Assembly (NCBI GenBank): GCA_963575745.1 | Contig: CAUYUJ010000001.1 | Coordinates: 3,410,001-3,474,000, forward strand | Length of the DNA: 64,000 bases | Direction: 5' to 3' | DNA from: Prorocentrum cordatum | Taxonomy: Eukaryota | Part shown: piece after piece, positions 6,881 through 57,781 of the stretch | Layout of the letters: the number at the start of each line of letters is the position of its first letter | How positions within the stretch are numbered: the first letter of the stretch is position 1 | The notes under the pieces: model-generated | Told to the model about the DNA's origin: nothing | What the model saw: only the letters and a program-made list of their open reading frames with translations | The model's database searches: none | Made by a program: the position numbers and the translations under genes

Positions 6881-7310
6881 CAGCGAAAATCGGCGACAAA
6901 CCTAACCTAACCATATGAATCCGCTATGACCCCTACAGAAGCAAGCTCTGATTGAGGAATGAACACCCCCTCCCTGGCCCGACTGGCAGCCAATCTGGAT
7001 CCATAACGACACCCATGGCAACACGCGACAGGTTGTTTCTGTGTCCAACTGGGGGTTTCTGTGTCCCCGTTGGGTGTTTCTGTGTCCCGCGCCGCCTGGG
7101 GGTCCCCAGGATGAGTGTTTCTATGTCCGCTATGATGCCGTTCTAATGCGTTTCGTATTGTGCGACGATACCCATCATCTCGTGGAAATCAAACCGTTGT
7201 CCAATAGGGGAAACTTTTGCGTCCAGGATTTTGTGGACGCGGGACACTTTGGAGTTTCTGTGTCCGCCACCTTGTGCTCTTGTGGCATCGTGTGTATGTC
7301 ATGCTTGTGG

Positions 7311-10092: not shown

Positions 10093-10935
10093 CCCCCAGT
10101 AGCTCCCCATCCCAAGACGACTGCTGAATATGCTGAGGCTCGGGCCAGACTCGGGTGCTACGTATGTGTTGGGAGGGCGGGTGGGATTGAGCGAGACGGC
10201 CTGCGGGCGGGGAGGGGGTAACTTAACCCCTCCCCCCACCCCCTCCCCTGGACCTGGAATGGAGGTGCCGCGACCGATTTGAGCGTCCAAGAAGGCCTCG
10301 GCGAGATTCTACAAATCACTGATTCTCCTGAGGTGTTGGGGGGTGGGGGGGGGGAGAGGCTAAGAAGGACCCCCCTTCTTTGATCGAGCTCTTCCAAGAT
10401 GGCCCAAAGATGGTCTCCAAGGCTTCCAAGAGTGCCCCAGGAGGGCCCCAAGAGGCGCCCAAGCGGCCCCAAAAGGCCACAAAAAAAGGTCCCCAGGAAG
10501 CTCCCAAGAACCCCCCAAGAGGCCTGGGGTGCCAAGACGCTGCAAGAGGGTCCTGGGACCGCCAGGGCACCCCCAAGACGTCCAAGCAGGACTCCAAGAA
10601 GCTCTCGAGAGACATACGAAGAGATTCCGAGAGGCATGCAGGAGGCCTCTGGCCCTTCAGCTCACCTCCTCCTCCTCTTCCTCCTCCTCCTTCTCCTATT
10701 CCTCATCCGCCTATTCCTCATCCCTCCTCCCTCCGCCCCCCCCCCTCTCCCTCTCCCTCATCCTTCTCCTCCTCCTCCTCCTCCTCCTCCTCCTCCTCTG
10801 TCCTCCCCCTCTCGTTGTACGACGGTTTCCCCAATCACTTATTCCACTGCGTGCTCCTCCGTGTCCGGGGTCAGGGCAACTCGCCTGGACATCGTTTCTG
10901 CGTGAGCTCGTGGAGTTACGCGGAGCGCCTAGACT
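10093..10935 (+). mobile_element. Non-autonomous repeat family K, apparently full copy
   Basis: Head ccccagtagc...gactgctgaatatgctga...gtgttgggagggcgggtggga shared with 62332; CCAAGA body; (CCT)n tract; terminal module ending in the hairpin cgcggagcg. Confidence 0.7.
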
Positions 10936-22025: not shown

Positions 22026-22530
22026 AGAAGGAAGAGCCATCTCAGCACCACCACGCAATACATCAGGATGCAGGTCCGCACCACACTCGTGACGTGAATC
22101 GGGAAGCTCGCGGACATCATGCGGCAGCTCAGCAAACCATGTCCAGAAACAAATATCCCCGACCAGGTTCATGAAGAAGAGGCGCACGACCAAACTCGCG
22201 CCGTTGATCGTCGCAACTGGGCTCAGGAGGAAGATCCAGATCGGCCCGACCACCGGGTACATTATGAAGAGGGTCCGCACCAAGGTTCCAGGATGGATCG
22301 GGAAACTCGCGAACGACATCAGGAGACACCTGACGAACAGCAACGCGAACAGCAACGTCAGCACCCAGTTCTCGCAGGAGTGCCTTAGCAGCGCCGAGTC
22401 CATCACGCTGAAAAACAGGGGGCCCTTTGTTGAAGGGCAGAGGCGGCACCTCGCGTAGTGCCAAAGGGTGCGAAGCTCGTCGATTACCCTCTTTAGGATA
22501 AGAACCACGTGGGAGTTTACGCCGACGGCC

Positions 22531-22578
<48 letters not shown>

Positions 22579-22768
22579 CTGATGATGATTACGATGATGC
22601 TTATGCTGATGCTGATGATTGTGATGATGACGCTGATGCTGATGCTGATGCTGATTATGTTGATGATTTAGCGACTAATGTTGCTGCTGATGATCTTTAT
22701 GATTAGGATAATGTCGATGATGCTGCTGCTGCTGCTAATGATGAGGATGCTGATGATGGTGATGATGG

Positions 22769-22835
<67 letters not shown>
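22531..22835 (+). repeat. (GAT)n microsatellite
   Basis: Directly visible. Confidence 0.95.
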
Positions 22836-22836
<1 letters not shown>

Positions 22837-23916
22837 CGCAACTAATCAGAGCGGTGCATGGCGTCACTGTACTTCTACACTGCAGACTCCCCCGTAGATA
22901 CAACCGCCACTGGCTGGAGCTCTGCGGGGGCCCGAAAGATGTTCTAGCGCCCCGACTTGCCGCGGGACAAACCGCAGTCCGGAAGACATGCCGTCCACCC
23001 CCCCCAGGTGCCCTGCTCGGGCTGCCCAAACTATGCGCCTGCTCCGCTCAAAACGTAAACCGATACATTCGTTTGTGCATCTCGAGTGGACCGTGTCGAC
23101 TTGGTGGCCCTCAGGGGTGCGCAACCAGCATGGGTAATCGAATCGTTAGGGCCGTGCGCAGCCCTGCTGGGAGAAACGAGCCGCCGACCGCCTGCCTCGT
23201 CTGGCTTCTCAGCATCCTGGTTCCTGCTGATGCTGCTCGTGCGCTTGTTCTGAGCCACGTCCCCTGGAAGAACCAAATTCGAGGATCGAGCAGGGATCGA
23301 CCGTCCGGGCAGTCCGATAGGCCTACCAGGACATGCTCTTAGAGCTGAAGAGTGTTCGAACAACAGAAACGATGTTCTGACAACATACGAGTGATGAGCT
23401 CAAGCAAGACCGCCTCAACCATGCATGCTCTAATCGCATTTCGTGCCAACCACAGCAGGTTCCTAGAACATTATTTGGTGGGCCTGTCGGCAAATCAGGC
23501 CGCGTCGCCACTGCCTGGGAGAGATTTGGCGGCGCGCACAAGGGGGTATGGGGAGGGGGAAAGTTCTTTAGAAGCACCCCTGCTTCTTAAAAGGCGCGGG
23601 CCCTGTCTACAAATGTAAGGCTGGCGCCTTCTAAGAAGCAGCCGCCTTCTAAGAAGCCTTCCCCCCTCCTCCTACCCCCCTCTGCGCGCCGCCAGGAGAT
23701 GGGCACTGCGTGCCGCGGGCCCACACCCGCAACAACTGGGCCTGGTTTCAGCGCCGGGCGCGCGGCGTCCGCCATCGACACGTACGTGCCATGGTTCGCG
23801 GCGCGCCTCGGGATGTGCGTCGCCTGGGGCAGAGAGAGAGAGAGAAGGGGGGAGGGAGGGAGGGAGGGAAGGAGGGAGGGAGAAAGCGGGAGGGAGGGCG
23901 ATATTGTTCGCCCTAT

Positions 23917-23931
23917 CCCAGAGGAGGGTAA
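23917..23931 (+). repeat. Target-site duplication of LINE A, left copy
   Basis: cccagaggagggtaa, identical to 29896-29910. Confidence 0.9.
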
Positions 23932-24094
23932 TGATGAGATGCGATGAGACGACTCCCAGGAAGACAGTCCAAGGAGGGAGGAGCCAGCCCAGTACAAAAT
24001 GGGGGCAGGGTGCACCAGGGGAAATTTGCAGAGGACGAGAGTGGAGGCCACATGCCACCCTCGCCCTCAGCGGCAGGTGCACCCGCTCCAAAAC

Positions 24095-27000
24095 TTAAGC
24101 CTTGCTACGAGCCTCCTCTCGAGCACGAACCCGCTCAAGGAGGCGTGGCGTTCGAGCTTCATACGGGATGACGCTGTCCGATGAATACTGCACGACAGAC
24201 GTCGGCGCTCGGACATCCCGCGCACTCGCAACACTGAGACCGACTCGAGGGGCAGGGATGGCTCGGTCGATCAACGCACGAATTTGGGGATTTGGGGCCA
24301 GCCCTGTCCGAAATCGAAACATAAACATTTTCCTGTGCTGGTGGATGGGGCGCAGGGCCTGGCTAACTTGATGGTCTTCTCCTGACTCCACCTCCACACT
24401 TCAGACATAGCAGGGGGCCCCGTCGAGACTCACTCTCGACTTCGGCACGGCACTGCACGGGACGCAGCGCAAGAAAACGAGAACCACTAACGGCGACCAA
24501 CTGACGCCCCATCGCGTCAACCGTGAGAGGCTTCAAATAAGACGGGGTCCCGAGACATCCATTCAAAGGCAGGTTGCAGCATGACGGCGCAACCTTCAAG
24601 CATACCTCACACTGCCATCCCAGCTCACCCAGGCCCCAAGAGTGCCACCCCTCCCCCACGACTACTCTTTTTCCGATGCAATGACGCTCCTCGGCCTCCA
24701 GACTCTCGAACTGCTCCTGGGGCCTATGAGCCTTGACGTGCCGAGCCGAGATGAACTGGTGGCCCTCGAGGCCGCGACCAAACTTGAGGATGCCCGCTGC
24801 CTGGTTTGACGCGCGCAGCTGGGTCGGCATGGGCTGGTGAAACCGTCGGGTGGCGGCCAGGCAATCATTTCCAGCGAGTGTCTCGCGGTCGGCGATCTGG
24901 CGAATCAAACAGAGCGCAACGCTCTCGGCAATGCTCGGAAGTCGGGGGGGTAGCCTGCCACGGGCCCGCGCGTCACACTGCGACGGGCGCATTCGAGTCA
25001 GGTGACGCAACGGCTATGGACCAGGAAGCGCGCTCAAGCTCAACAAAGTCTGGCCGCGCGCAAGATCCGTCAGGGGCTACGTCAAGACGAGGGCCCTGCA
25101 CCAGAGAAGCCACCCCTCTCCACCTCAACGTCCAACTCCTCCCCCTCAGGGCCCTCGAGGACTACTTTATCCGAGCAGGAAGGGAGGGGTTCTTCCTCAT
25201 CATAAAGAAACACTCATTGGACAAAGATGGGATCGTCAAACTCAAGGCCTGCACTCAAGGAAAGCGGGCTGACCTTAGACTCGATGCGCGCAGCCACAAC
25301 TGGACCCAACATGCATTCAAAGAGACAGTGCTTGATCGTCTGCCTCTGCCCACACGCGCAGAAATCATCGCAGAGGTAGCCGGCAGCATGGGCGCGGGCC
25401 TTGGTCCACACACCGCGGCAAGAGAAGCTCCCGACGAGAAACTTCTGCAGACTGGAAAGCCGACGAGGCCGACCGCCGATCGCCGGTCGAACGACGTCGG
25501 GCGAGGCCCTGGAACCTTGCGGAGCTCCCAGCTGCATGGCTAATAACATCTCGTGCTGCCGTTGAATTCCAGCGAACATGAGGACCGGCAGCATGCTCGG
25601 AGGCCTTCGACTAGAATCAATAGTAGCTCCCCTATGGTCCATCCAACTGATCGCAGGGGGGATGCGCCAGCCCGCACGTCGCACAGCAAGAACTGCTCGA
25701 GACAGAGGGCCCCTACTGGACTGCCAATCGGAGACCTCGCATGGCTCGGCTTCGCGCCAGAGCCTCAACAGGCGAGCACGGACAGCGAGCGGATGCTCGC
25801 AGACCTCCGCCTGCCAACGCATTCTGCGCCACTGGATGGCAGGTGCAATGGCTGACGCGCCTGCGCCGTCGCCCGGCAAAACCGTCTTGCTCGAGGGGCT
25901 CACTCCGCCGCGCACGGGAAGCTGTCCACGCGCCGCGTCACGCCTGCGCCGAAGCCTCTCCGAGTTGCTGAGTCCGACAACCTCGCTACCGTAGGTGGCC
26001 TCGGGCATGGCGCCAGCGCGGATGACGCAGCCGATGGACTGCGCCTTGATGCCAGTGGTGACCTTCCCGAAGCGCCTGATCTTCTGCATGCGCCTCACCA
26101 TATGCGCCCTGCGCTTCATGCGCTTGGTGGGGGCCCCTCTGTCGGCGAGCAGACTGCCCTCGCTAACGTCAACTCCGACATGCACAGCGCTGCGACGGGC
26201 GCCTGAGGGGGCCAGACCAAGCGCGGTGACGATGCCCTGCGCGAGGGGGGAACTGGTGCCCACGATCGCGAGCTTGTCATTGACAACTGCGCCGGGCTCC
26301 GAGACCGCGGCCTTGAACTCCCGCATGGCTTCGACCATCATGGATGTAGTCGTCGCCGCAGACGTCGACGACGCCCGAATCGAGTTGTCGCCGATCTAAT
26401 TCACAAACTGAATGCACGGCTGCCTGACGAGGAAGCTATCGCACTCCCTCGCCGACCAGATCTTGACGGAAACGTCGCAATGCACACCGCCTGCAGGAAG
26501 GCCGCACTCAGCGCAGAGAGCCCGCTCCGCGTGGTGACCGGCGAGCCGAAGGACACGAGGTGCACGCCACATGTTGGGCACCAACTTCAGAAAAAGCCGT
26601 CGGTGCCTGGAAACTGATCTACTTGTCCTGCAGTCTTGCCAGCGGGATGCGCTCGTAGTACTTGCTGAAATCGGCTACAGCCAGTGCCCCATGGTAGGAC
26701 TGCTTGTGGTCGGCCTCGCCCTCGGCCGCTTGAAGCCGCGCGCAGTCCACAGAGGGGCGCCCTCCCGCCGCGCCCCAGTGCGGCCTGTCGATCCGCTCCT
26801 GCAGCCCCCGCCGCACTCTGTAGAGGCCAGCGTGGAGCACCGCCGACCGATTCTCCGAGCCAGGCGACTTGGGCAACGTCGGTGTGACCAGCCAGCAGAG
26901 CTGCCGCGGCGGCAGGCCGAGGGCCTCCATCGCGGAGAAAATGAAGGCGACCACCTCGAGCGCCCCGTCATCTAGCAACAGGAAGTGACGGGGGTGCACA

Positions 27001-28726
27001 TTGTCAGGCGCCGCCGTGGTAGTCAAGGAGAACGTCCGAGCAACCGCGCGTTTTTCCTTGGCGGTCGCCCTCTCCGACGCAGTCCCATCAGGGGTCCAAG
27101 CCGGCGCAGGTCGGGAGCTGGACCGCAACTTCTTGCGCGGCTGAACCTCATGCCGAACAACGTCGTGGACGTGTGCCATCGGGCCCTGGGCCGTCGGGAC
27201 CACTGTGGGCTGTGCAAGGTCACGGTGCTTAGTGGTGCGGTGGAGGACACGTGAGCCACTGGAGACCGCCATCGCACACCACTCCTTCCACTTCTGGCGA
27301 TCCTCCTTGGACGCGACACTGGCCGCGAGCTTGATGCCGGGCTCGATGTCGTCATGGGACGTGCGGCAGACCTCCTCGTCGAAATCGTCCTGCGCGAGCG
27401 CTCGCGCCTGCTGGGCGGGGCGCTTCAGGCGCGTGGACAGGCCCTGCCCGTGGGAGACCGCCGTGGTGAAATTGAGGACCTCCTCGGCGCGCGTCGCGAG
27501 GTCCTGCGCGGATGGGCTGACCAGCCTCTTGAGACCCGTGATGCCGAGGAGAGAACTCTGCAACCGCTGCCAGCCCTCAGGCGCAGCCTGAAGGTCGGGG
27601 GCGTCCTTAATCGCGTAGGTGATGTCGACCCATCGAGGCCGTAGAGGGCGCGCAATAGCTCGAACATTGCAATCGTGGTGCCCGACAGCAGCATCGATCT
27701 CCTCGGCAGCTCGCGCGGCGAGATGGCCCCAGGCAGCAGAAAAGGGGGCCACAGCCAACCTCAGGAGGGACTCCTTCATCAGCACATGCCTCGACGGCGG
27801 CTTCAGCGACTCGCCGCGCGCTGTCCTGTGACGGCGGCGGGGGCTGAGGGCCAATGATAACCTGGGTGCTCATCTTTGGCGCCGCCGTGTAGACCAGCCT
27901 CTTGACGTGCTCGGCATCGCCCTTGAGGAGCGCGTGGGCTGGTCGATGGCCGCGCTTAGCCCACTTGACATCAATGGCGGCACTAGCATAATTACATCCT
28001 CATGGCCGCCGAATTGAAAAGGGATTCGTCGATGTTGGACTGACCTGGTCCTCCGCGAAACGTAACTGCAGGTGCACTCGCTTGCGTGCAACCAACATGG
28101 GGAGGAAATTGGCTCGCCTCCAGCTCACCAGGGTGCATGTTCCAGTCGCCGCCAATGATCACGGGGCCGCCCCAAGCCTCGGCAGCCAGGCCCAACTCCC
28201 GCAGTAAACTGCCGTTCCGCCCGCCAGCGCCCTCACCCGTGAACAGGTAGAGATTGAAGACGTGGAGGCTGGTGGGCAGATCAAGCACATCTATCATAAC
28301 GTGCTGAACTCGATTTGGCCAGACCTCGTGCCGCCCGGGGACTGGGGGCCGCGCGCCCAGGCAGTCGCGCACAGCGATGGCAACGCCTGCAGACGGCACC
28401 GAGCCCACCGTGGGCAGGATCGGAAGCGCCAAGAGCCTCCAGCCTCGACCGCCACGCCAGGAGCTCAGGGCTTCGACGTGCTCGCTGATGTGCACGAACT
28501 CCTGCAGAAGCACGGTGCTGTCCGCGGTGCTGCCAAGGCGCTTCTTGACGGACGCCTTGCCACCGCTCGCACTGTAGGGCTCGATGCTGAACTCAGCACC
28601 CAGGGCAGGCCGCGCCCCAAGCGGCGGCGCACGGCCGCGGCCAGGCAGCCCGCAGACGTCGGGCCAGGCGCATGGTGGGCCCTCAGCAGCGCCAGTGCAA
28701 ACTCCTGGTCGGAACGAGCCCAACAC
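24095..28726 (-). pseudogene. LINE A ORF2: AP endonuclease, reverse transcriptase, CCHC knuckle, RNase H and Cys-rich C-terminus; several frameshifts and stops
   Basis: APE motifs VLLQE, SAGVAIAV, NLYL, IIGGDWN, SNID. RT motifs APDNVHP, LPKSPG, ADFSKYYERI, GLPAG; catalytic YxDD decayed to stop-IGD at ~26390; VGVD; TYGSEV. Knuckle CACGQRQTIKHCLFEC. RNase H motifs PDGS, SIAE, NDC, RHVKAH. C-terminal WQCEVC and LCLKCG. Confidence 0.9.
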
Positions 28727-28736
28727 GGCAGCAGGG

Positions 28737-29742
28737 CTAAACCCGCCGCGCGCGCTTGAGCTCCACCTCGGACCACGTGGCGTCGAACGCCTGCATGAAA
28801 TCGTCGATGCTGCCCTCCGTCCGAGCAGTCAGTCGGGCCAACACCCATGGGTACATCACCGTCATCTGCAGCAGCACCATCAGCCCCAGCGCCACAGCCA
28901 CGGGCCGCAGCCTTGCTGGCGACCGCGGCCTTGAGCTTGGTCCAGGCCTCCGGCTTGAGGATGGCAACGAGCTCAGGCTGGTCGGCCACGTCGTCCTCGA
29001 CGGGGTCGATGTCGACAGCGCTGGCGGTGACACCCTTGGCCGTCTCGGCGAAGGCCGCGTCGAGCGCCGCAACTTCCAACCTCTCGGCTTCGACGGTCTG
29101 CTTGCGCAGCTCGATGCCTTTGGATAGCTCAGCCAACTGACTCTCCATTTCGGCCAACTCGTTCTCCAACTTCTCGAGGCCGTTCCGCGCACGCTGCAGG
29201 TCCTGCTGTGTGCGCCGATGGAGGGCCTGGGGAGACAATGGCGCCCGCTTCTTCGCACGCAATGTCTCCAACTGCTTCTCGATCGGACTCCGTAAATCTG
29301 TGTTGCGCTCGTCAGCGGGCGGGAGCTTCTTGAGGGCCTCCTTAAGCTCCGTGATCCGCTCGGCAAGCTTGGCACTCTTCGACTTCTTGTCAGGATCGGC
29401 ACTGTTGCCTGTAGCAGACTCGTGCCACGGCGCCGTGCCTCCAGGCTTGGGCCACACGGCAGCGGGCGGCGCCAGGCGCTTCTCGATGGTCTGCATCCAC
29501 CCGGCAAGCTCCTTCGGCAGACCACTGGGAGCACCCGCCTGCCTCTTGGGAGCCCCCTTCTTGCCGCCGCTGCCACTGCCGTCGCCTGTCTCCATGTGCT
29601 TCTGGCGCGCAGGGGAGACAATGGCGGCAGGCGCATCGCGACCGCAGAGGCATTGGATGCGGCACGCCCAGTTCTCCGCGCGACCGCACTGCCCGCAGCA
29701 CCAGTGGGGCTTGCGCGGGACCGCTGGCGGCTGCGGCACCAT
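28737..29742 (-). pseudogene. LINE A ORF1: N-terminal RanBP2-like Cys4 zinc finger plus coiled coil; probable frameshift near 28830
   Basis: ATG at 29742. WCCGQCGRAENWACRIQCLCG, then heptad-rich LQRARNGLEKLENELAEMESQLAELSKGIE. The likely C-terminus ELKRARRV* lies in an adjacent frame. Confidence 0.82.
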
Positions 29743-29873
29743 GCCTGGGATGAGAGAGACGCGCCAAGGCGGGGCGGGCCACCTCGACGCTCGCCCTGGG
29801 GCTGACCAGGGGAAGGACTGAAGACTGGCCGCGGACTAGCGGTATCCACGTGTTCCCCTGTGGAACAAAGCGT

Positions 29874-29895
29874 CTTGAGCCAAAATGGCTACGCC
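29874..29895 (-). other. Dinoflagellate spliced-leader relic
   Basis: Minus strand GGCGTAGCCATTTTGGCTCAAG: 21/22 match to DCCGTAGCCATTTTGGCTCAAG. Confidence 0.95.
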
Positions 29896-29910
29896 CCCAG
29901 AGGAGGGTAA
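29896..29910 (+). repeat. Target-site duplication of LINE A, right copy
   Basis: cccagaggagggtaa directly abutting the SL 5' end. Confidence 0.9.
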
Positions 29911-32900
29911 GGAGGAGGCCAGCGGGGAGTGGAAGGGGAGATGAAAGGGTAAGGCTGGAACGAGGAGGAAGGACTGGAGGCCATGGATGCAAATGGGGGA
30001 GCAGGAGGCATAGTGTATATGAGGTATGAGCAAAGACGATGTGGAGTTACCTGCACGCACTGCGCAATCGCGGCAGCAGAGGGAGCAGCAGCAGGGGGCG
30101 AGAAGGCCCTCCTCCTTGCTCTGCTTCTTCCTCCCCTTTCTCCACCTTCTCGTCGTCATCGCCATCCTCCTCCTCCTCCTCCTCGTCATCCTTCTCTTCT
30201 CTTGACCCTCCTCCTCCTCCTCCCCAACCGCCCGAAAGCCAATGGAATGTGGTCTCGAGAACGCTTTACCTTCTCAGATCGCCGCCGACAGAGCTCCTCC
30301 CTAGCGGACTGGCCCTGCCGTCGGGTTAGCGCGCGAGCTCGAAGACCGGCCGAACAACGCCATGGTGGCCATTGGCACCAACGGGCGGGTCTCCTCCTCC
30401 TCCTGCTCCTCCTCCTGCTCCTGCTCCTCCTGCTCCTCCTGCTCCTCCTGCTCCTCCTCCTCCTCCTCCTCCTCCTCTCGTCGTCATCATCATGTTCGTC
30501 CTCCTCCTCCTCCTCCTCTTCCTCCTCTCTGTCCTCTCTCTCTCTCTCTCCCATCCCTCCTCTCTGTCATCTCTCTCCTCCCTCCACCGCTTCATTCCCC
30601 TCCTCCCTTCCCACTCTCTCTCTCCTCCTCCTCCTCCTCCTCCTCCTCCTCCTCCTCCTCCTCCTCCTCCTCTCCTCCTCCTCCTCATCGAGCAGAAGGA
30701 CGAGGGGGTGGCAGATGAGGGAGGAGGAGGAGGAGGAGGAGGAGGAGGAGGAGGACCGAATGATCGGGCCCTGGCCAAGTCAGAGACCGACGAGAGAACG
30801 TTCACGCACGGTGAGCCATGCGCACCCGAAGTGGCCAAGCTCTCAACCAAGAGTGCGGCAGGGGCCGAACTCGACCGCGTGCAGCTACGTTCAGGTTTGT
30901 GCGGGTCAGCCAGTGGTCCAATATGTCACAGCCATTCTACACGGCCGATGGAGAGATGAAGCCAGTGCTCTTACCCAGAGCAGGACTTGAGCCACCGCGA
31001 CGGCGTACGAAGGAGGAGGAGGGAGGAGGAGGAGGAGGAGGAGGAGGAGGAGGAGGAGGAGGAGGAGGAGGAGGAGGAGGAGGAGGGAGGGGGCGGCGTG
31101 GCCCTCGAGGTGGGCGGGGCGGCAGCTGGCGCCCGCCTGCAGTCCCGCAGCTTTGATGGAGGACGAGCTCGCGGACCTTCGGGGGGGGTGCGGGGCGCCC
31201 GCGAGGGACGAGGTGGGCGAACGCAGCGGCGCTGTCACATGCTGGGAGCGCTCTTCGCAGCAGGCCTGCGCGGCGCGCGTGCGGCGGCACACGTCGGCGG
31301 AGGTCTGCAGGGCGCACCCACCAGAAGTCGCACGAATCAGCACCACGACGGTATGCCAACTATGGCCCACAGTGTGTGTGTGTGTGTGGGTGTGTGTGTG
31401 TGTGTGTGTGTGTGCGGTGTGTGCCTGTGTGTGTGTGTGTGTGGGCGAGAGTGTGTCTGTCTTCGTGGGGCCAATGGCTGGTTCCTTTCAGTGCGCATGC
31501 ACCTGCATTGCTCCCCCTTGCTTGCACTCCCTCGGGGCGTTCCCGACTCCTGCCGCGTGTGGTTGCTTTCTTCTGATCAACTGCTCACGCGTCGCTTTGG
31601 GGGCCGGGGCCCACACGCAACAGAGAACGTCAGCACGAGACCACATTCGGGCACACTATGTTTTTTGCGAGGCATCAGAAAGACATCCCACGCAGGCTAT
31701 CTGTAAGCGTGCCTGACGAGCGAGATCTTGCTCCAGGGACGATTGTTGCAACACACGGGAGGCATTGGGATTGGGTGGGTACATGAGTGGATCAAGACCA
31801 AATCATGTCCTCCCCTTCGCTCTCCTCCCCTCTCCTCCGCTCTCATCCCCTCCCCGCTCCGCTTCTCCACTTCCCTCGTCTGACTTCCACTAATCATGTC
31901 CCCTCTCCTTCCCACTCGTTTGCTTTCTCCTACCGCTCCGCCCTTGCCAGTCTCCTCCAACACCACCTCCTTATCCATGGACGAGGGAGGGCGTATCCTC
32001 CTCCTCCTCCTCCTCCTGCCTCGTCCTTCTCCTCATGCTCCTTCCCCTCGCATTCCATCCTCCTGCTCCTCCTCCTCCTGCTCCCCCTCCCACACCCCAA
32101 CCACTCTTAGTATCATCGTCACCATCACCCCCATAATCATCCTCCCTCTTGCTCTTGCTGATCCTTCTCACCATCCTTTTCCCGTTCCTCGTCCCGCCTA
32201 TCCGCTTCCATCTCCCCCTACTCTGTACGGCATCATCCTGTTCTTCATCCTGCCGGTCCTCGTTCGCATCCGCCACTTCCTCCTCGCCCCGTGTGCAAAT
32301 CCTTATTTCTTGATTGAATCCCATACTATTATAAGTCAGTTTTGGGATCCACCTCACCTAGGATAGCAACGACGGCTGGCGGCGAGGGTGAACTGGGTAT
32401 GATGTCCGAATCAGATATCACGCCCTCCTTTTCATCCCCCATTTCCCCTTCCCCTGCTCTCCTCCCTCCCCCTCCTCCTTTCACTTCTCCTGTTCCCGCC
32501 TGTGTCCTCCATCTCCATCTCCATGTCCTCTTCCTCCTCCTCGTCCTCGTCCTCGTCGTCGTCGTCCTCCGCCTCCTGCTCCTCCCCCTCCTCCTCCTCC
32601 TCCTCCTCCTCCTCCTCGTCTTCCTCGTCTTCCTCGTCCTCCTCGTCCTCCTCCTCCTCGTCCTCCTCGTCCTCCTCGTCCTCCACGTCCTGCTCGTCGT
32701 CCTCCTCCTCCTCCTCCCTCCTCCTCCTCCTCCTCATCCTTCCTTTCTTCCGTTTTTTCCCTTTCCTCCCTTTCCTCCCTTTCCTCCCTCTGCTCCCTCT
32801 CCCTCCTCCTCCTCCTCCTCCTCCTCCTCCTCCTCCTCCTCCTCCAGCCTCTCCCAAATCATCAACGAGCCCTCGCGAACCTTCGACGAGCGAACCGTCG

Positions 32901-55934: not shown

Positions 55935-57781
55935 AAAATGAATTTAACTGCCCAAGAAGATGTCCGCGACCATGATGGGAGCCATCGCGGCTGTGCGCAT
56001 GCCGCGAGAAATCCGCTCCGTAATGGCGCCCATGGTCGGTGCATTCAGGCGCAAGCTGCGCGCGTTATAAATGACCGCGCTCGGCGCCAGTCGCTGAGTG
56101 CGTCCTGGCAGGAGGATCTCGCGAAAGTCGCGAACCGATTCCGCGCGCGCCAGTTGTCCAGCGAGTGAGATCGCACAGCCGCCCGCGCCCCGCTTGGCGA
56201 CGAACGCAAAGAAAATCCGCATCGGCACGCGGGCGCGGAAAAAGGGGGCTTGTTCCAATTTCACTTCTGTCGCATGCATTTCCTGCACCGCCGCAGCTGT
56301 TCCCGGTCTTGAGAAATTTGGCGGGGTAGTCGATGTTCCTCTGTGGTGTGCTTCCTGTCATCGTATCGCAATGTCGCGGCGTCCTCGCGTTCGACGCGCC
56401 GAAAACGACTGGTCTACGATGTTCCGCAGGCGCGCGCCATGGAACTATTCCCGCGTTGAATGTGCCGCGCCGCCGCGTCGACGGGTCGGAACCGTGATTC
56501 GACCTGCTCTTTCAGCGAAAGGTTGTCCAGATCACATTCAGACACAGCGCGATCATTCCCCACTCCAGGACCGCCCACAGAAATTTGGATGACTGGGGTA
56601 TCTCCATTGGATATGACTCCCATGTGTCTGTTCGCCCTCCACCGTCCAGCTGTCGTCGTCACCTTGACCACTTCCAAGAGTCGGTTGGTTTGCACGTCCT
56701 TTCGAATCTGCTGTATGCTTTTGTCCAGCCCGAAATAGACCGGGGTCTTCGAGCTGGTCGGCGCATCAGCTTCGAAGCGGCGCCAAGTGCCAGGAGAGTC
56801 CTTGAGCCCACGCAACGCCTTGGCCACGCGATAGGCAGCCAGTCATTCAGCGCCGCACACACACACACGTACAGCAGCACGCCTACCAGGAGACGGTCCT
56901 TCCACATCACATTTGTCACCGTCCAGTTCCATAGACTGAAGTCATCCCTGCACGCTGTGAAGGATGGCCGTCTTCGTGACAGTCTTTTGGCATTTGCCAT
57001 TAATTTTGCTTTGCCAGGCTCACGAGCCAGTCTGGTGTAATCTGCCAACTCATGCTTGGGCGGTGCAGGCGCACAAATTTGAACCACCCATGCCATCGCG
57101 TCCAGTCGTTCTACCATTCCATTCGTTCCTCCTCCAGCTTGCGGGCACGTCTGCCTAAACCATTGAGGTGGCCATCGATATGATCATTTTTGGCCTCGTG
57201 CCACGTAGCTATAGCGCGGATGGCCGTGTAGACTCTTTGATATCTGAAGCCATTTTATCAGTAGACGCTGTGACCGAGGCTGCGATTTCAGTCCGCATCG
57301 TTTCCAGAATTTGTCCACCTCTGAGCGCAGCGCTGGACCATCAAGGCGAAGAGGGTCACCGGCAACATTGGGAGGATCTGCGTGCATATCACCTTTTCCC
57401 ACGAGCTTTGCCCAAAAGGGTCATTGCCTTGGATGGGGGTCCGAAGAGGCACATGCATAATCTTGTCCGATTTCGCCTTCGGCATCTGGATGGTCCTCTC
57501 GAGGCAGTTTCTTAGCACGGTCCCCAGAGCCATCCATCAGCGAGACGCCTGGCAGTAACAGAAAGGCCACGGGCCCGAGAGGATCCATCTGGCATGCGCC
57601 CCGCGGGCACGATTCGAGAAGTCCACGTGAGTTGAGAGAGAATGGGCCGCCACTCGCCCGAGAAGCGCTGGCAGAAACTGAACCGACTGTCGGACGCAAA
57701 CGTCCTCGCACTGCCGCGGGATAGCGGTGTCCATTTCCTGGTCTCGGACACAGCAAGACCTTGAGTCAAAATGGCAACGGA
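55935..57781 (-). mobile_element. LINE B: SL-headed, 3'-truncated, degenerate non-LTR retrotransposon (ORF1 plus N-terminal APE)
   Basis: SL relic, then a broken ORF (...KALRGLKDSPGTWRRFEADAPTSSKTPVYFGLDKSIQQIRKDVQTNRLL...), then APE-like motifs SNAR, AVQEMH, AGGCAI, LLPGR, IYN and a frameshifted LG(D)LNF at ~55945. Confidence 0.7.
57760..57781 (-). other. Dinoflagellate spliced-leader relic (diverged)
   Basis: Minus strand TCCGTTGCCATTTTGACTCAAG: 20/22 match to the DinoSL. Confidence 0.88.

Follow-up and report, generated by a model that had tools for sequence, protein, structure and literature searches.

A DNA-encoded spliced leader at the 5' end of a LINE in the dinoflagellate Prorocentrum cordatum: probable insertion of a trans-spliced element mRNA

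Described systems and how the locus compares

Long interspersed nuclear elements (LINEs) must recreate their 5' end in each cycle, for which internal promoters and 5' ribozymes are the solutions known; 5' ribozymes resembling that of hepatitis delta virus (HDV) are found in R2 and L1Tc. We examined a stretch of 64,000 nucleotides of the Prorocentrum cordatum genome (the window; NCBI GenBank assembly GCA_963575745.1, contig CAUYUJ010000001.1, positions 3,410,001 to 3,474,000 of the forward strand), which contains on its minus strand a LINE with the dinoflagellate spliced leader (SL) at its 5' end. All coordinates given below are positions in this 64-kb window. With a probability of roughly 0.8, the element is one insertion of a Prorocentrum-type non-LTR (long terminal repeat) retrotransposon, copied from a LINE mRNA to which the SL had been trans-spliced. 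The finding combines two known things, namely a LINE of the apurinic/apyrimidinic endonuclease (APE) type and an SL-relic retrocopy.

Dinoflagellate retrogenes with SL relics (recycled processed cDNAs) were reportedly described by Slamovits and Keeling in 2008. As in those retrogenes, a DNA-encoded SL stands here at the head of what appears to be a copy of a trans-spliced mRNA, and the family includes a 5'-truncated derivative with the 15-nt relic; the difference lies in the cargo, a retrotransposon with its own endonuclease and reverse transcriptase (RT), and in the clean 15-bp duplication that brackets both the SL and the 3' end. APE-type LINEs (L1, I-like) make target duplications of variable length. 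The element shares with them a first open reading frame (ORF1), a second one (ORF2) with EEP endonuclease, RT, zinc knuckle and RNase H (in relatives), and the absence of terminal repeats. It differs from them in having a trans-spliced leader as its 5' end instead of an internal promoter start, in having no poly(A), and in an RT too diverged to match any solved RT (E ≤ 0.001). SLACS, CZAR, CRE and NeSL-1 insert into SL-RNA genes by means of a restriction-like endonuclease that is C-terminal to the RT, and have SL-gene sequence on both sides. The P. cordatum element is likewise a LINE physically joined to SL sequence, but its SL is confined to the 5' side and enclosed by the two duplication copies, the surrounding DNA is CT-rich and not SL-derived, and the endonuclease is APE-type.

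Articles are cited here by PMC number, and each citation refers to excerpts of the article. Relic SLs have been described in dinoflagellates (PMC7245778, PMC12014239); in some of their genomes roughly one gene in five is a retrogene, and the retroposition enzyme is stated to be unknown, with Ty1/copia (LTR) elements favoured (PMC6050394, PMC5585692). The trypanosomatid ingi/L1Tc elements are also APE LINEs in a host with SL trans-splicing, and transcription in trypanosomatids is polycistronic. L1Tc has the Pr77 internal promoter, an HDV-like ribozyme and unspliced transcripts (PMC1874656, PMC3383444, PMC3185411), whereas the copy studied here bears the SL, and the scan of it for ribozymes was negative. 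In Hydra, approximately 30% of the Iso-Seq reads of transposable elements carry an SL (PMC12220107); host SL trans-splicing is common to both cases, although the excerpts report it for Hydra at the RNA level, with no SL fixed in DNA.

Our literature search, with supplements outside its scope, found no description of an SL-headed LINE with the SL inside the target-site duplication, and the excerpts of five further articles (PMC3942190, PMC3229502, PMC10666404, PMC5890265 and PMC7789003) contained nothing on an SL-headed LINE. "Retrogenes" that bear an RT and an SL relict have implicitly been counted before; their reading as the LINE's own 5' end, with a duplication around it, seems to be new to print within the library searched.

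The insertion and its spliced leader

The element measures 5,964 bp between the two copies of a 15-bp duplication, TTACCCTCCTCTGGG, which has exactly two perfect matches in the window, both on the minus strand (Table 1). When up to one mismatch was allowed the number of matches remained two, versus 0.01 expected, and none of 100 shuffles reached two. The duplication is exactly 15 bp long: the adjacent bases are unlike on both sides and it cannot be extended either way. Its sequence is ordinary CT-rich DNA.

The inner edge of the upstream copy is directly adjoined by GGCGTAGCCATTTTGGCTCAAG, which agrees in 21 of 22 letters with the canonical DinoSL, DCCGTAGCCATTTTGGCTCAAG (PMC7245778). The single difference between its last 21 letters and CCGTAGCCATTTTGGCTCAAG is at SL position 2, which is G here and C in the canonical leader. 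The 19-nt core of the SL has one exact occurrence in the window, the one on the inner side of the upstream duplication copy. The SL ends precisely where the exon does, being followed by AC and the rest of the untranslated region (UTR) and not by the GT of the SL-gene intron, and no SL-gene sequence was found in either flank, both of which are CT-rich, low-complexity non-SL DNA. These three observations (position inside the duplication, end at the exon boundary, no SL gene alongside) indicate that the SL arrived together with the reverse-transcribed RNA, as had been proposed in the initial annotation of this DNA; flanks made of SL-RNA gene sequence, which that annotation had named as evidence to the contrary, are absent. 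The lack of SL-gene sequence and the AC that follows the SL also argue strongly against an insertion of the SLACS/CRE/NeSL type.

The same annotation had described, along the minus strand, a perfect 15-bp duplication, the SL, a 131-nt UTR, ORF1, ORF2, a short tail and the second copy of the duplication, and we recovered this order. What it called a short tail corresponds to a 163-nt 3' UTR, which ends in ...CTCATCA without poly(A). This terminal CTCATCA abuts the duplication directly, and A makes up 15% of the last 40 nt. A 3' poly(A) or simple-repeat tail is found in many LINE clades and is not universal. The repeat search of positions 22500-31500 found no terminal repeats beyond the duplication itself (family D15), and no second copy of the element was detected in the window (blastn; tblastn with 154 proteins). 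The element is identified as a LINE by the APE-type endonuclease and RT recognised by homology, the presence of ORF1, the target-site duplication and the absence of terminal repeats.

Two other routes could have joined an SL to a LINE without trans-splicing of the LINE RNA: a template switch to free SL RNA during reverse transcription, or insertion into an SL-RNA gene. L1 is known to switch template to small nuclear RNAs, and trypanosomes and nematodes have LINEs that are specific to SL genes. A switch onto SL RNA would bring intron letters along, and the SL here ends at the exon end, followed by AC and the UTR, which makes template switching unlikely; as for an SL-gene target, the 3' flank holds no remainder of such a gene, the duplicated sequence is ordinary DNA and the endonuclease is of the APE type. 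We consider both routes barely plausible.

The simplest reading is that the source RNA was a trans-spliced LINE mRNA bearing the SL. In such a scenario, the template would be a LINE mRNA that received the 22-nt SL by trans-splicing at the first base of the 131-nt UTR. The element machinery would nick a pyrimidine/purine-rich target, and reverse transcription would be primed at the specific 3' end of the element and not at poly(A), as is suggested by the absence of a poly(A) tail. The RNA would then be copied up to its capped 5' end, and the first two letters, GG instead of DC, are possibly cap-proximal or non-templated additions. Copying up to the cap, with an extra 5' G, is known for L1. Finally, the insertion would be sealed with the 15-bp duplication. 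For expression of a new copy, transcription through the sense copy and SL trans-splicing would suffice, as in any dinoflagellate gene, and an internal promoter or a 5' ribozyme would thus be dispensable. In line with this, no Rfam family reached its gathering score anywhere in the window, and a scan of positions 29500-30100 (Rfam cmscan, E ≤ 1) gave no ribozyme, including HDV-like ones, and only one sub-threshold snoRNA match; the scan covers Rfam families, and a novel ribozyme is possible.

Table 1. Features of the element and of its upstream flank (positions in the window; minus strand throughout).
Feature	Position	Strand	Evidence
Host flank upstream of the element (60 nt), pyrimidine in 82%, without AG ahead of the SL	29911..29970	-	sequence reading
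5' copy of the target-site duplication, TTACCCTCCTCTGGG	29896..29910	-	match count, sequence reading
DNA-encoded dinoflagellate spliced leader, GGCGTAGCCATTTTGGCTCAAG	29874..29895	-	21/22 letters identical to DCCGTAGCCATTTTGGCTCAAG
5' UTR, 131 nt, without upstream ATG	29743..29873	-	sequence reading
ORF1 (ATG at 29742): N-terminal Cys motif (HWCCGQCG...C..C.C), coiled-coil-like middle, C-terminal domain ending ...ELKRARRV and stop	28737..29742	-	homology, reading frames
ORF2, N-terminal apurinic/apyrimidinic-type (EEP) endonuclease, GGDWN present	27995..28618	-	Pfam, tblastn, profile of relatives
ORF2, reverse transcriptase and thumb/zinc-knuckle, in three frames	25100..27764	-	library search, tblastn
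ORF2, C-terminal RNase H-like remnant and Cys-rich tail	24095..25013	-	hhalign
3' UTR, 163 nt, ending ...CTCATCA, without poly(A) or simple-repeat tail	23932..24094	-	sequence reading
3' copy of the 15-bp target-site duplication	23917..23931	-	match count, repeat search (family D15)

Two more SL-like sequences were observed in the window, and all three SL marks are on the minus strand. A near-complete SL with two mismatches, TCCGTTGCCATTTTGACTCAAG, is located at 57760-57781, with its 19-nt core at 57760-57778; it is preceded by an (ACACAT)n microsatellite and followed by GT, with an ATG 27 nt later, and could be either the 5' end of a retrogene or an SL-RNA pseudogene. A degenerate relic, CGAAGCCATTGTGGCTAAAG, with three mismatches in the 19-mer, is found at 597-615.

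Other copies of the family and the 5' junction

One public run, X1, was the only one to contain part of the window (0.26 of its sampled words), and no RNA run was listed as containing it. X1 consists of contigs only, its type is guessed to be DNA, and it possibly derives from the sample of the assembly itself, in which case it is not independent; it is known to us through summary tables and not through the contigs, with matching at a likeness of at least 85%. Two other runs of the same study (X2 and X3) contained nothing matching the stretch. In total, 954 X1 contigs were matched: 23 at ≥99% identity, 222 at 95-99%, 414 at 90-95% and 295 below 90%. The number of contigs and their spread over the identity classes point to a multi-copy, diverged family. 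The unique flanks of the insertion (23000-23260 and 30047-30800) had no cover in X1, and the X1 tables list no junction that bypasses the element.

Beyond position 29893, at least eight X1 contigs continue for a median of 34 nt in letters unlike those of the window. Read on the element strand, the first two letters of the consensus of these loose ends (complement of TC) complete the canonical TCCGTAGCC. Beyond TCCGTAGCC the agreement among the loose ends is only 0.52, as would be expected for different insertion sites, and the consensus is pyrimidine-rich on the element strand. At low coverage only repeated flanks assemble, and the pyrimidine-rich consensus is therefore weak evidence.

The summed depth of X1 reaches 1138 at position 29872, and the bin 29786-30046 has a mean of 479, which equals a depth of 1138 over approximately 110 nt. 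Elsewhere the depth is much lower, with 4-56 in the ORF bins and 3.9 in the bin of the 3' UTR. The SL and the first ~88 nt of the UTR (29786-29895, an extent derived from bin means) thus seem 20 to 50 times more abundant in X1 than the body of the element, which is the reverse of the usual profile of 5'-truncated LINEs. The abundant leader could be conserved across subfamilies, belong to a short non-autonomous element, or have been taken from a high-copy host gene. A 2-nt deletion at 29872, beside the SL/UTR junction, accounts for 116 of the 1138 of depth (two contigs).

Full-length copies with the same junction could arise in two ways: a small number of source loci with a native acceptor could give rise to them, or SL-bearing copies could themselves be spliced at the terminal AG of the SL. 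The second way amounts to a 5' end that renews itself, as the initial annotation had suggested. An element without a promoter would be transcribed by read-through, and the terminal AG would serve as acceptor, restoring SL/ACGCTTTG... in each cycle; as an extension, the polypyrimidine tract would come from a preference for pyrimidine-rich targets, and a complete 3' splice site would be rebuilt at each insertion. The SL is the only sequence upstream of the UTR that a retro-copy inherits, so the terminal AG would be needed if many active copies, each inserted independently, were to have a constant junction. The depth of 1138 at the junction and the eight contigs that leave the SL into dissimilar flanks are in line with such copies, and no inserted 15-nt relic was present at the full-length junction among the 12 indels listed of 14. 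The upstream 60 nt are as pyrimidine-rich as only 2.7% of the 60-nt windows of host DNA on the same strand (Table 1), the flank consensus of the other copies is pyrimidine-rich too, within the assembly bias mentioned above, and no internal ribozyme was found. However, the pyrimidine tract is followed first by the AG internal to the SL (29890-29889), 15 nt ahead of the terminal AG. The constant junction would be explained equally well by a few master loci, and one contig of the family shows the relic that is expected from splicing at the internal AG, a form known from published relics. Being drawn from DNA only, a self-renewing 5' end appears to us possible but doubtful.

That contig is one of two in which the SL is joined to the internal position 25708, in one case through TG and in the other, on the element strand, through CCATCCTGGCTCAAG followed by TG. 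CCATCCTGGCTCAAG corresponds to the classic 15-nt relic, CCATTTTGGCTCAAG, with two changes; relics of the form CCATTTTGGCTCAAG have been published (PMC12014239). The junction at 25708 indicates that RNAs of the family also receive the SL at an internal site, near ...CAGTAG/GGGCCC (the slash marks the junction), and the 15-nt relic in the second contig points to at least one event of re-splicing at the internal AG of an integrated SL. Integrated SLs would thus also be re-spliced at the internal AG, leaving the 15-nt relic.

Another role that has been considered for the integrated SL is that of a core promoter, in which the TTT(T/G) motif would drive new copies from their own 5' end. This motif of the DinoSL relict has been proposed as a promoter of retrogenes (Song et al. 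2017, PMC5585692), and it is intact in the element. Nevertheless, a transcription start in or after the SL cannot by itself restore a full SL, and if trans-splicing used a downstream AG, the UTR would become shorter in each cycle; we regard the SL as quite improbable in the role of promoter.

Coding state, relatives, surroundings and significance

ORF1 begins with MVPQPPAV, as does its P. cordatum homologue P0155 (64% identity), and contains a frameshift near 28830, where other copies carry about 22 extra bases. Its coiled-coil assignment comes from a weak match to ATG16 only (E 0.0066, below the cut-off). The spacing between ORF1 and ORF2 is approximately 120 nt. In ORF2, Pfam PF03372 (Exo_endo_phos) matched the endonuclease piece of the window at E 8.7e-4 and 19.6 bits, below the cut-off of 24.5, and the order of endonuclease and RT was established by tblastn to relatives. 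The RT region has stops at 26619-26621 and 26396-26398, the latter within ...FVN(stop)IGD..., where relatives show YxDD. The C-terminus of ORF2 matched an alignment of relatives (hhalign probability 86%, E 4.7e-6) and does not contain their GN..AD..AK segment. Its last ~30 residues resemble the tail of P0001 by eye, and the frame probably ends at TAA 24095-24097. In comparison with relatives, the frame changes at ~28830-28942 in ORF1 and at ~27994, 27740, 26600, 25100 and 25005 in ORF2. With at least six frame changes and several in-frame stops, the copy reads as coding-dead and complete in layout, and its earlier description as full-length thus holds for the structure and not for the coding sequence. 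Contigs of other copies in X1 have indels relative to the window at 28827-28829 (~22 extra bases), 27740 and 24944, from which it follows that at least some of the breaks are private to the window copy.

A combination of so many breaks with a perfect duplication (15/15) could also mean that the trans-spliced mRNA of an already defective copy was retroposed by another element, in which case the locus would be an ordinary SL-relic retrocopy with a LINE as cargo. Retrocopies of host genes with an SL relic abound in dinoflagellates, and the gene ontology class "RNA-dependent DNA replication" is enriched among SL-relict genes (PMC5585692). On the other hand, the lack of poly(A) at the 3' junction is more in keeping with recognition of the 3' end of the element itself than with a generic capture of mRNA. 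At a divergence of a few percent, a duplicate pair of 30 bp in total is expected to be still intact, so the breaks can be post-insertional, and the indels at 27740, 24944 and 28827-28829 show that some breaks are absent from other copies. Mobilisation of a dead copy in trans is, in our view, unlikely.

Several points count against the preferred reading, that of a LINE inserted from its own SL-bearing mRNA. A single full-length 5' junction was read directly; all further copies are known from the X1 tables, and the reading as a whole is drawn from DNA. The eight contigs with loose ends may overlap little more than the SL, and the excess of the leader in X1 could mean that the leader was not originally LINE sequence. 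SL position 2 is non-canonical. Pfam RVT_1 was not detected on the broken pieces of the window itself; some of the frame breaks may be indel errors of the assembly; and because of its many breaks the copy gives no proof of having been made by its own proteins, which leaves room for mobilisation in trans.

The 416-aa RT piece was compared with 1.84 billion proteins and gave 363 matches at E ≤ 0.001, of which 69 were at E ≤ 1e-10. All the named close relatives are P. cordatum gene models. The closest one, P0002, is 49-59% identical to the window copy, and ORF1 and ORF2 agree in order and frames with the models P0002, P0155 and P0001 (49-72% identity). We scanned the domains of 11 relatives that were long or close to the RT piece. 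Four of them (P0015, P0017, P0038 and P0030; E 2e-21 to 9e-14) contained Exo_endo_phos and RVT_1 above the Pfam cut-offs, P0029 contained Exo_endo_phos alone, and 6 out of the 11 had no domain match. RNase_H was also found in P0030 and in its cluster-mate P0154, which has the same three domains. The relatives with these domains are intact and more distant than the P. cordatum models. A profile of nine relatives matched a single solved structure, the engineered L1 endonuclease variant 2v0s (E 1.1e-4), and no solved RT structure at E ≤ 0.001; as the L1 endonuclease variant is its only match, the RT was not assigned to a clade. The element is thus placed, by sequence comparison, as a highly diverged APE-type LINE with an ORF1. 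A restriction-like endonuclease was not found, an N-terminal EEP domain being present instead and the C-terminus being RNase H-like and Cys-rich, and no search directed at such an enzyme was made. No relative was recovered from metagenome contigs with the ORF1 protein or the alignment of ORF2 relatives as query, and viral contigs had no match to the alignment of relatives or to the 20-nt SL/UTR junction pattern.

The gene model P0001 (P. cordatum, 1190 aa) is annotated as "protein kinase domain-containing protein" and is chimeric, with a kinase domain fused to an initial stretch of ~590 residues that consists of patchy ORF2 pieces, 49-72% identical to the window copy. LINE fragments are built into gene models of the published annotation.

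The SL pattern was also searched in IMG/VR, and 119 loci were found (L001-L119; e.g. L009 at 10486-10506, L021 at 7001-7121, and L046) in AT-rich contigs of giant-virus metagenome-assembled genomes, which carry the complete dinoflagellate SL in their DNA many times. In 114 out of the 119 sites, AC stands directly before the SL, giving ACCGTAGCC..., and the upstream 60 nt have 12% GC and a shared AT-rich motif. The first ATG, at a median of 49 nt downstream, opens an ORF of at least 100 codons in 98 out of the 119. These sites look like viral genes that encode the host SL behind a promoter of their own. No LINE homology was found in the same contigs (0 matches; tblastn E ≤ 1, 1.3 Mb), and the result listing of our literature search included no paper on a virus-encoded dinoflagellate SL.

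The neighbourhood of the LINE is rich in polypurine and polypyrimidine. Long low-complexity tracts with periodic repeats of 9-12 nt are located on both sides (22501-22892 and 30100-31100), and the (CTC)n/(GAG)n runs near the insertion form inverted repeats of 60-76 nt. Directly 3' of the insertion there is a palindromic repeat of ~150 bp (23546-23694), similar to a miniature inverted-repeat transposable element, in which ...GGAAGGCTTCTTAGAAGGCGGCTGCTTCTTAGAAGG... faces ...CTTCTAAAGAACTTTCC...; its summed depth in X1 is ~10,000, by far the highest of the stretch. No host gene was recognised around the insertion: a Pfam search of the 104 window ORFs of at least 200 codons outside the element gave two low-complexity sub-threshold matches, both in one ORF, and a putative upstream exon at 30052-30273 (minus strand) had no protein match. 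We discarded a GT...AG intron of ~245 nt around the insertion, proposed by eye (donor ~30049, acceptor ~23826), because its open frame of ~56 codons has an estimated chance of ~0.24.

An SL that reaches to the cap, within a clean duplication, shows that SL-bearing copies are indeed produced in these genomes by target-primed reverse transcription. The basis is one dead copy together with summary tables from one run, and the finding is a lead and not a demonstration. A trans-spliced leader as the 5' end of a LINE would, if true, be a third solution next to internal promoters and 5' ribozymes; trypanosome LINEs, by contrast, share the host expression logic but keep a promoter and a ribozyme. Tentatively, and with more doubt than confidence, the element may represent an autonomous LINE lineage that relies on the SL machinery of its host, with no promoter or ribozyme, in which read-through transcription, the AG of the SL and pyrimidine-rich targets would rebuild the acceptor and the capped 5' end, and whose enzyme would also be the engine of the SL-relic retrogenes. 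A LINE origin of those retrogenes becomes testable, and the element is a concrete candidate for the engine of retroposition in dinoflagellates.

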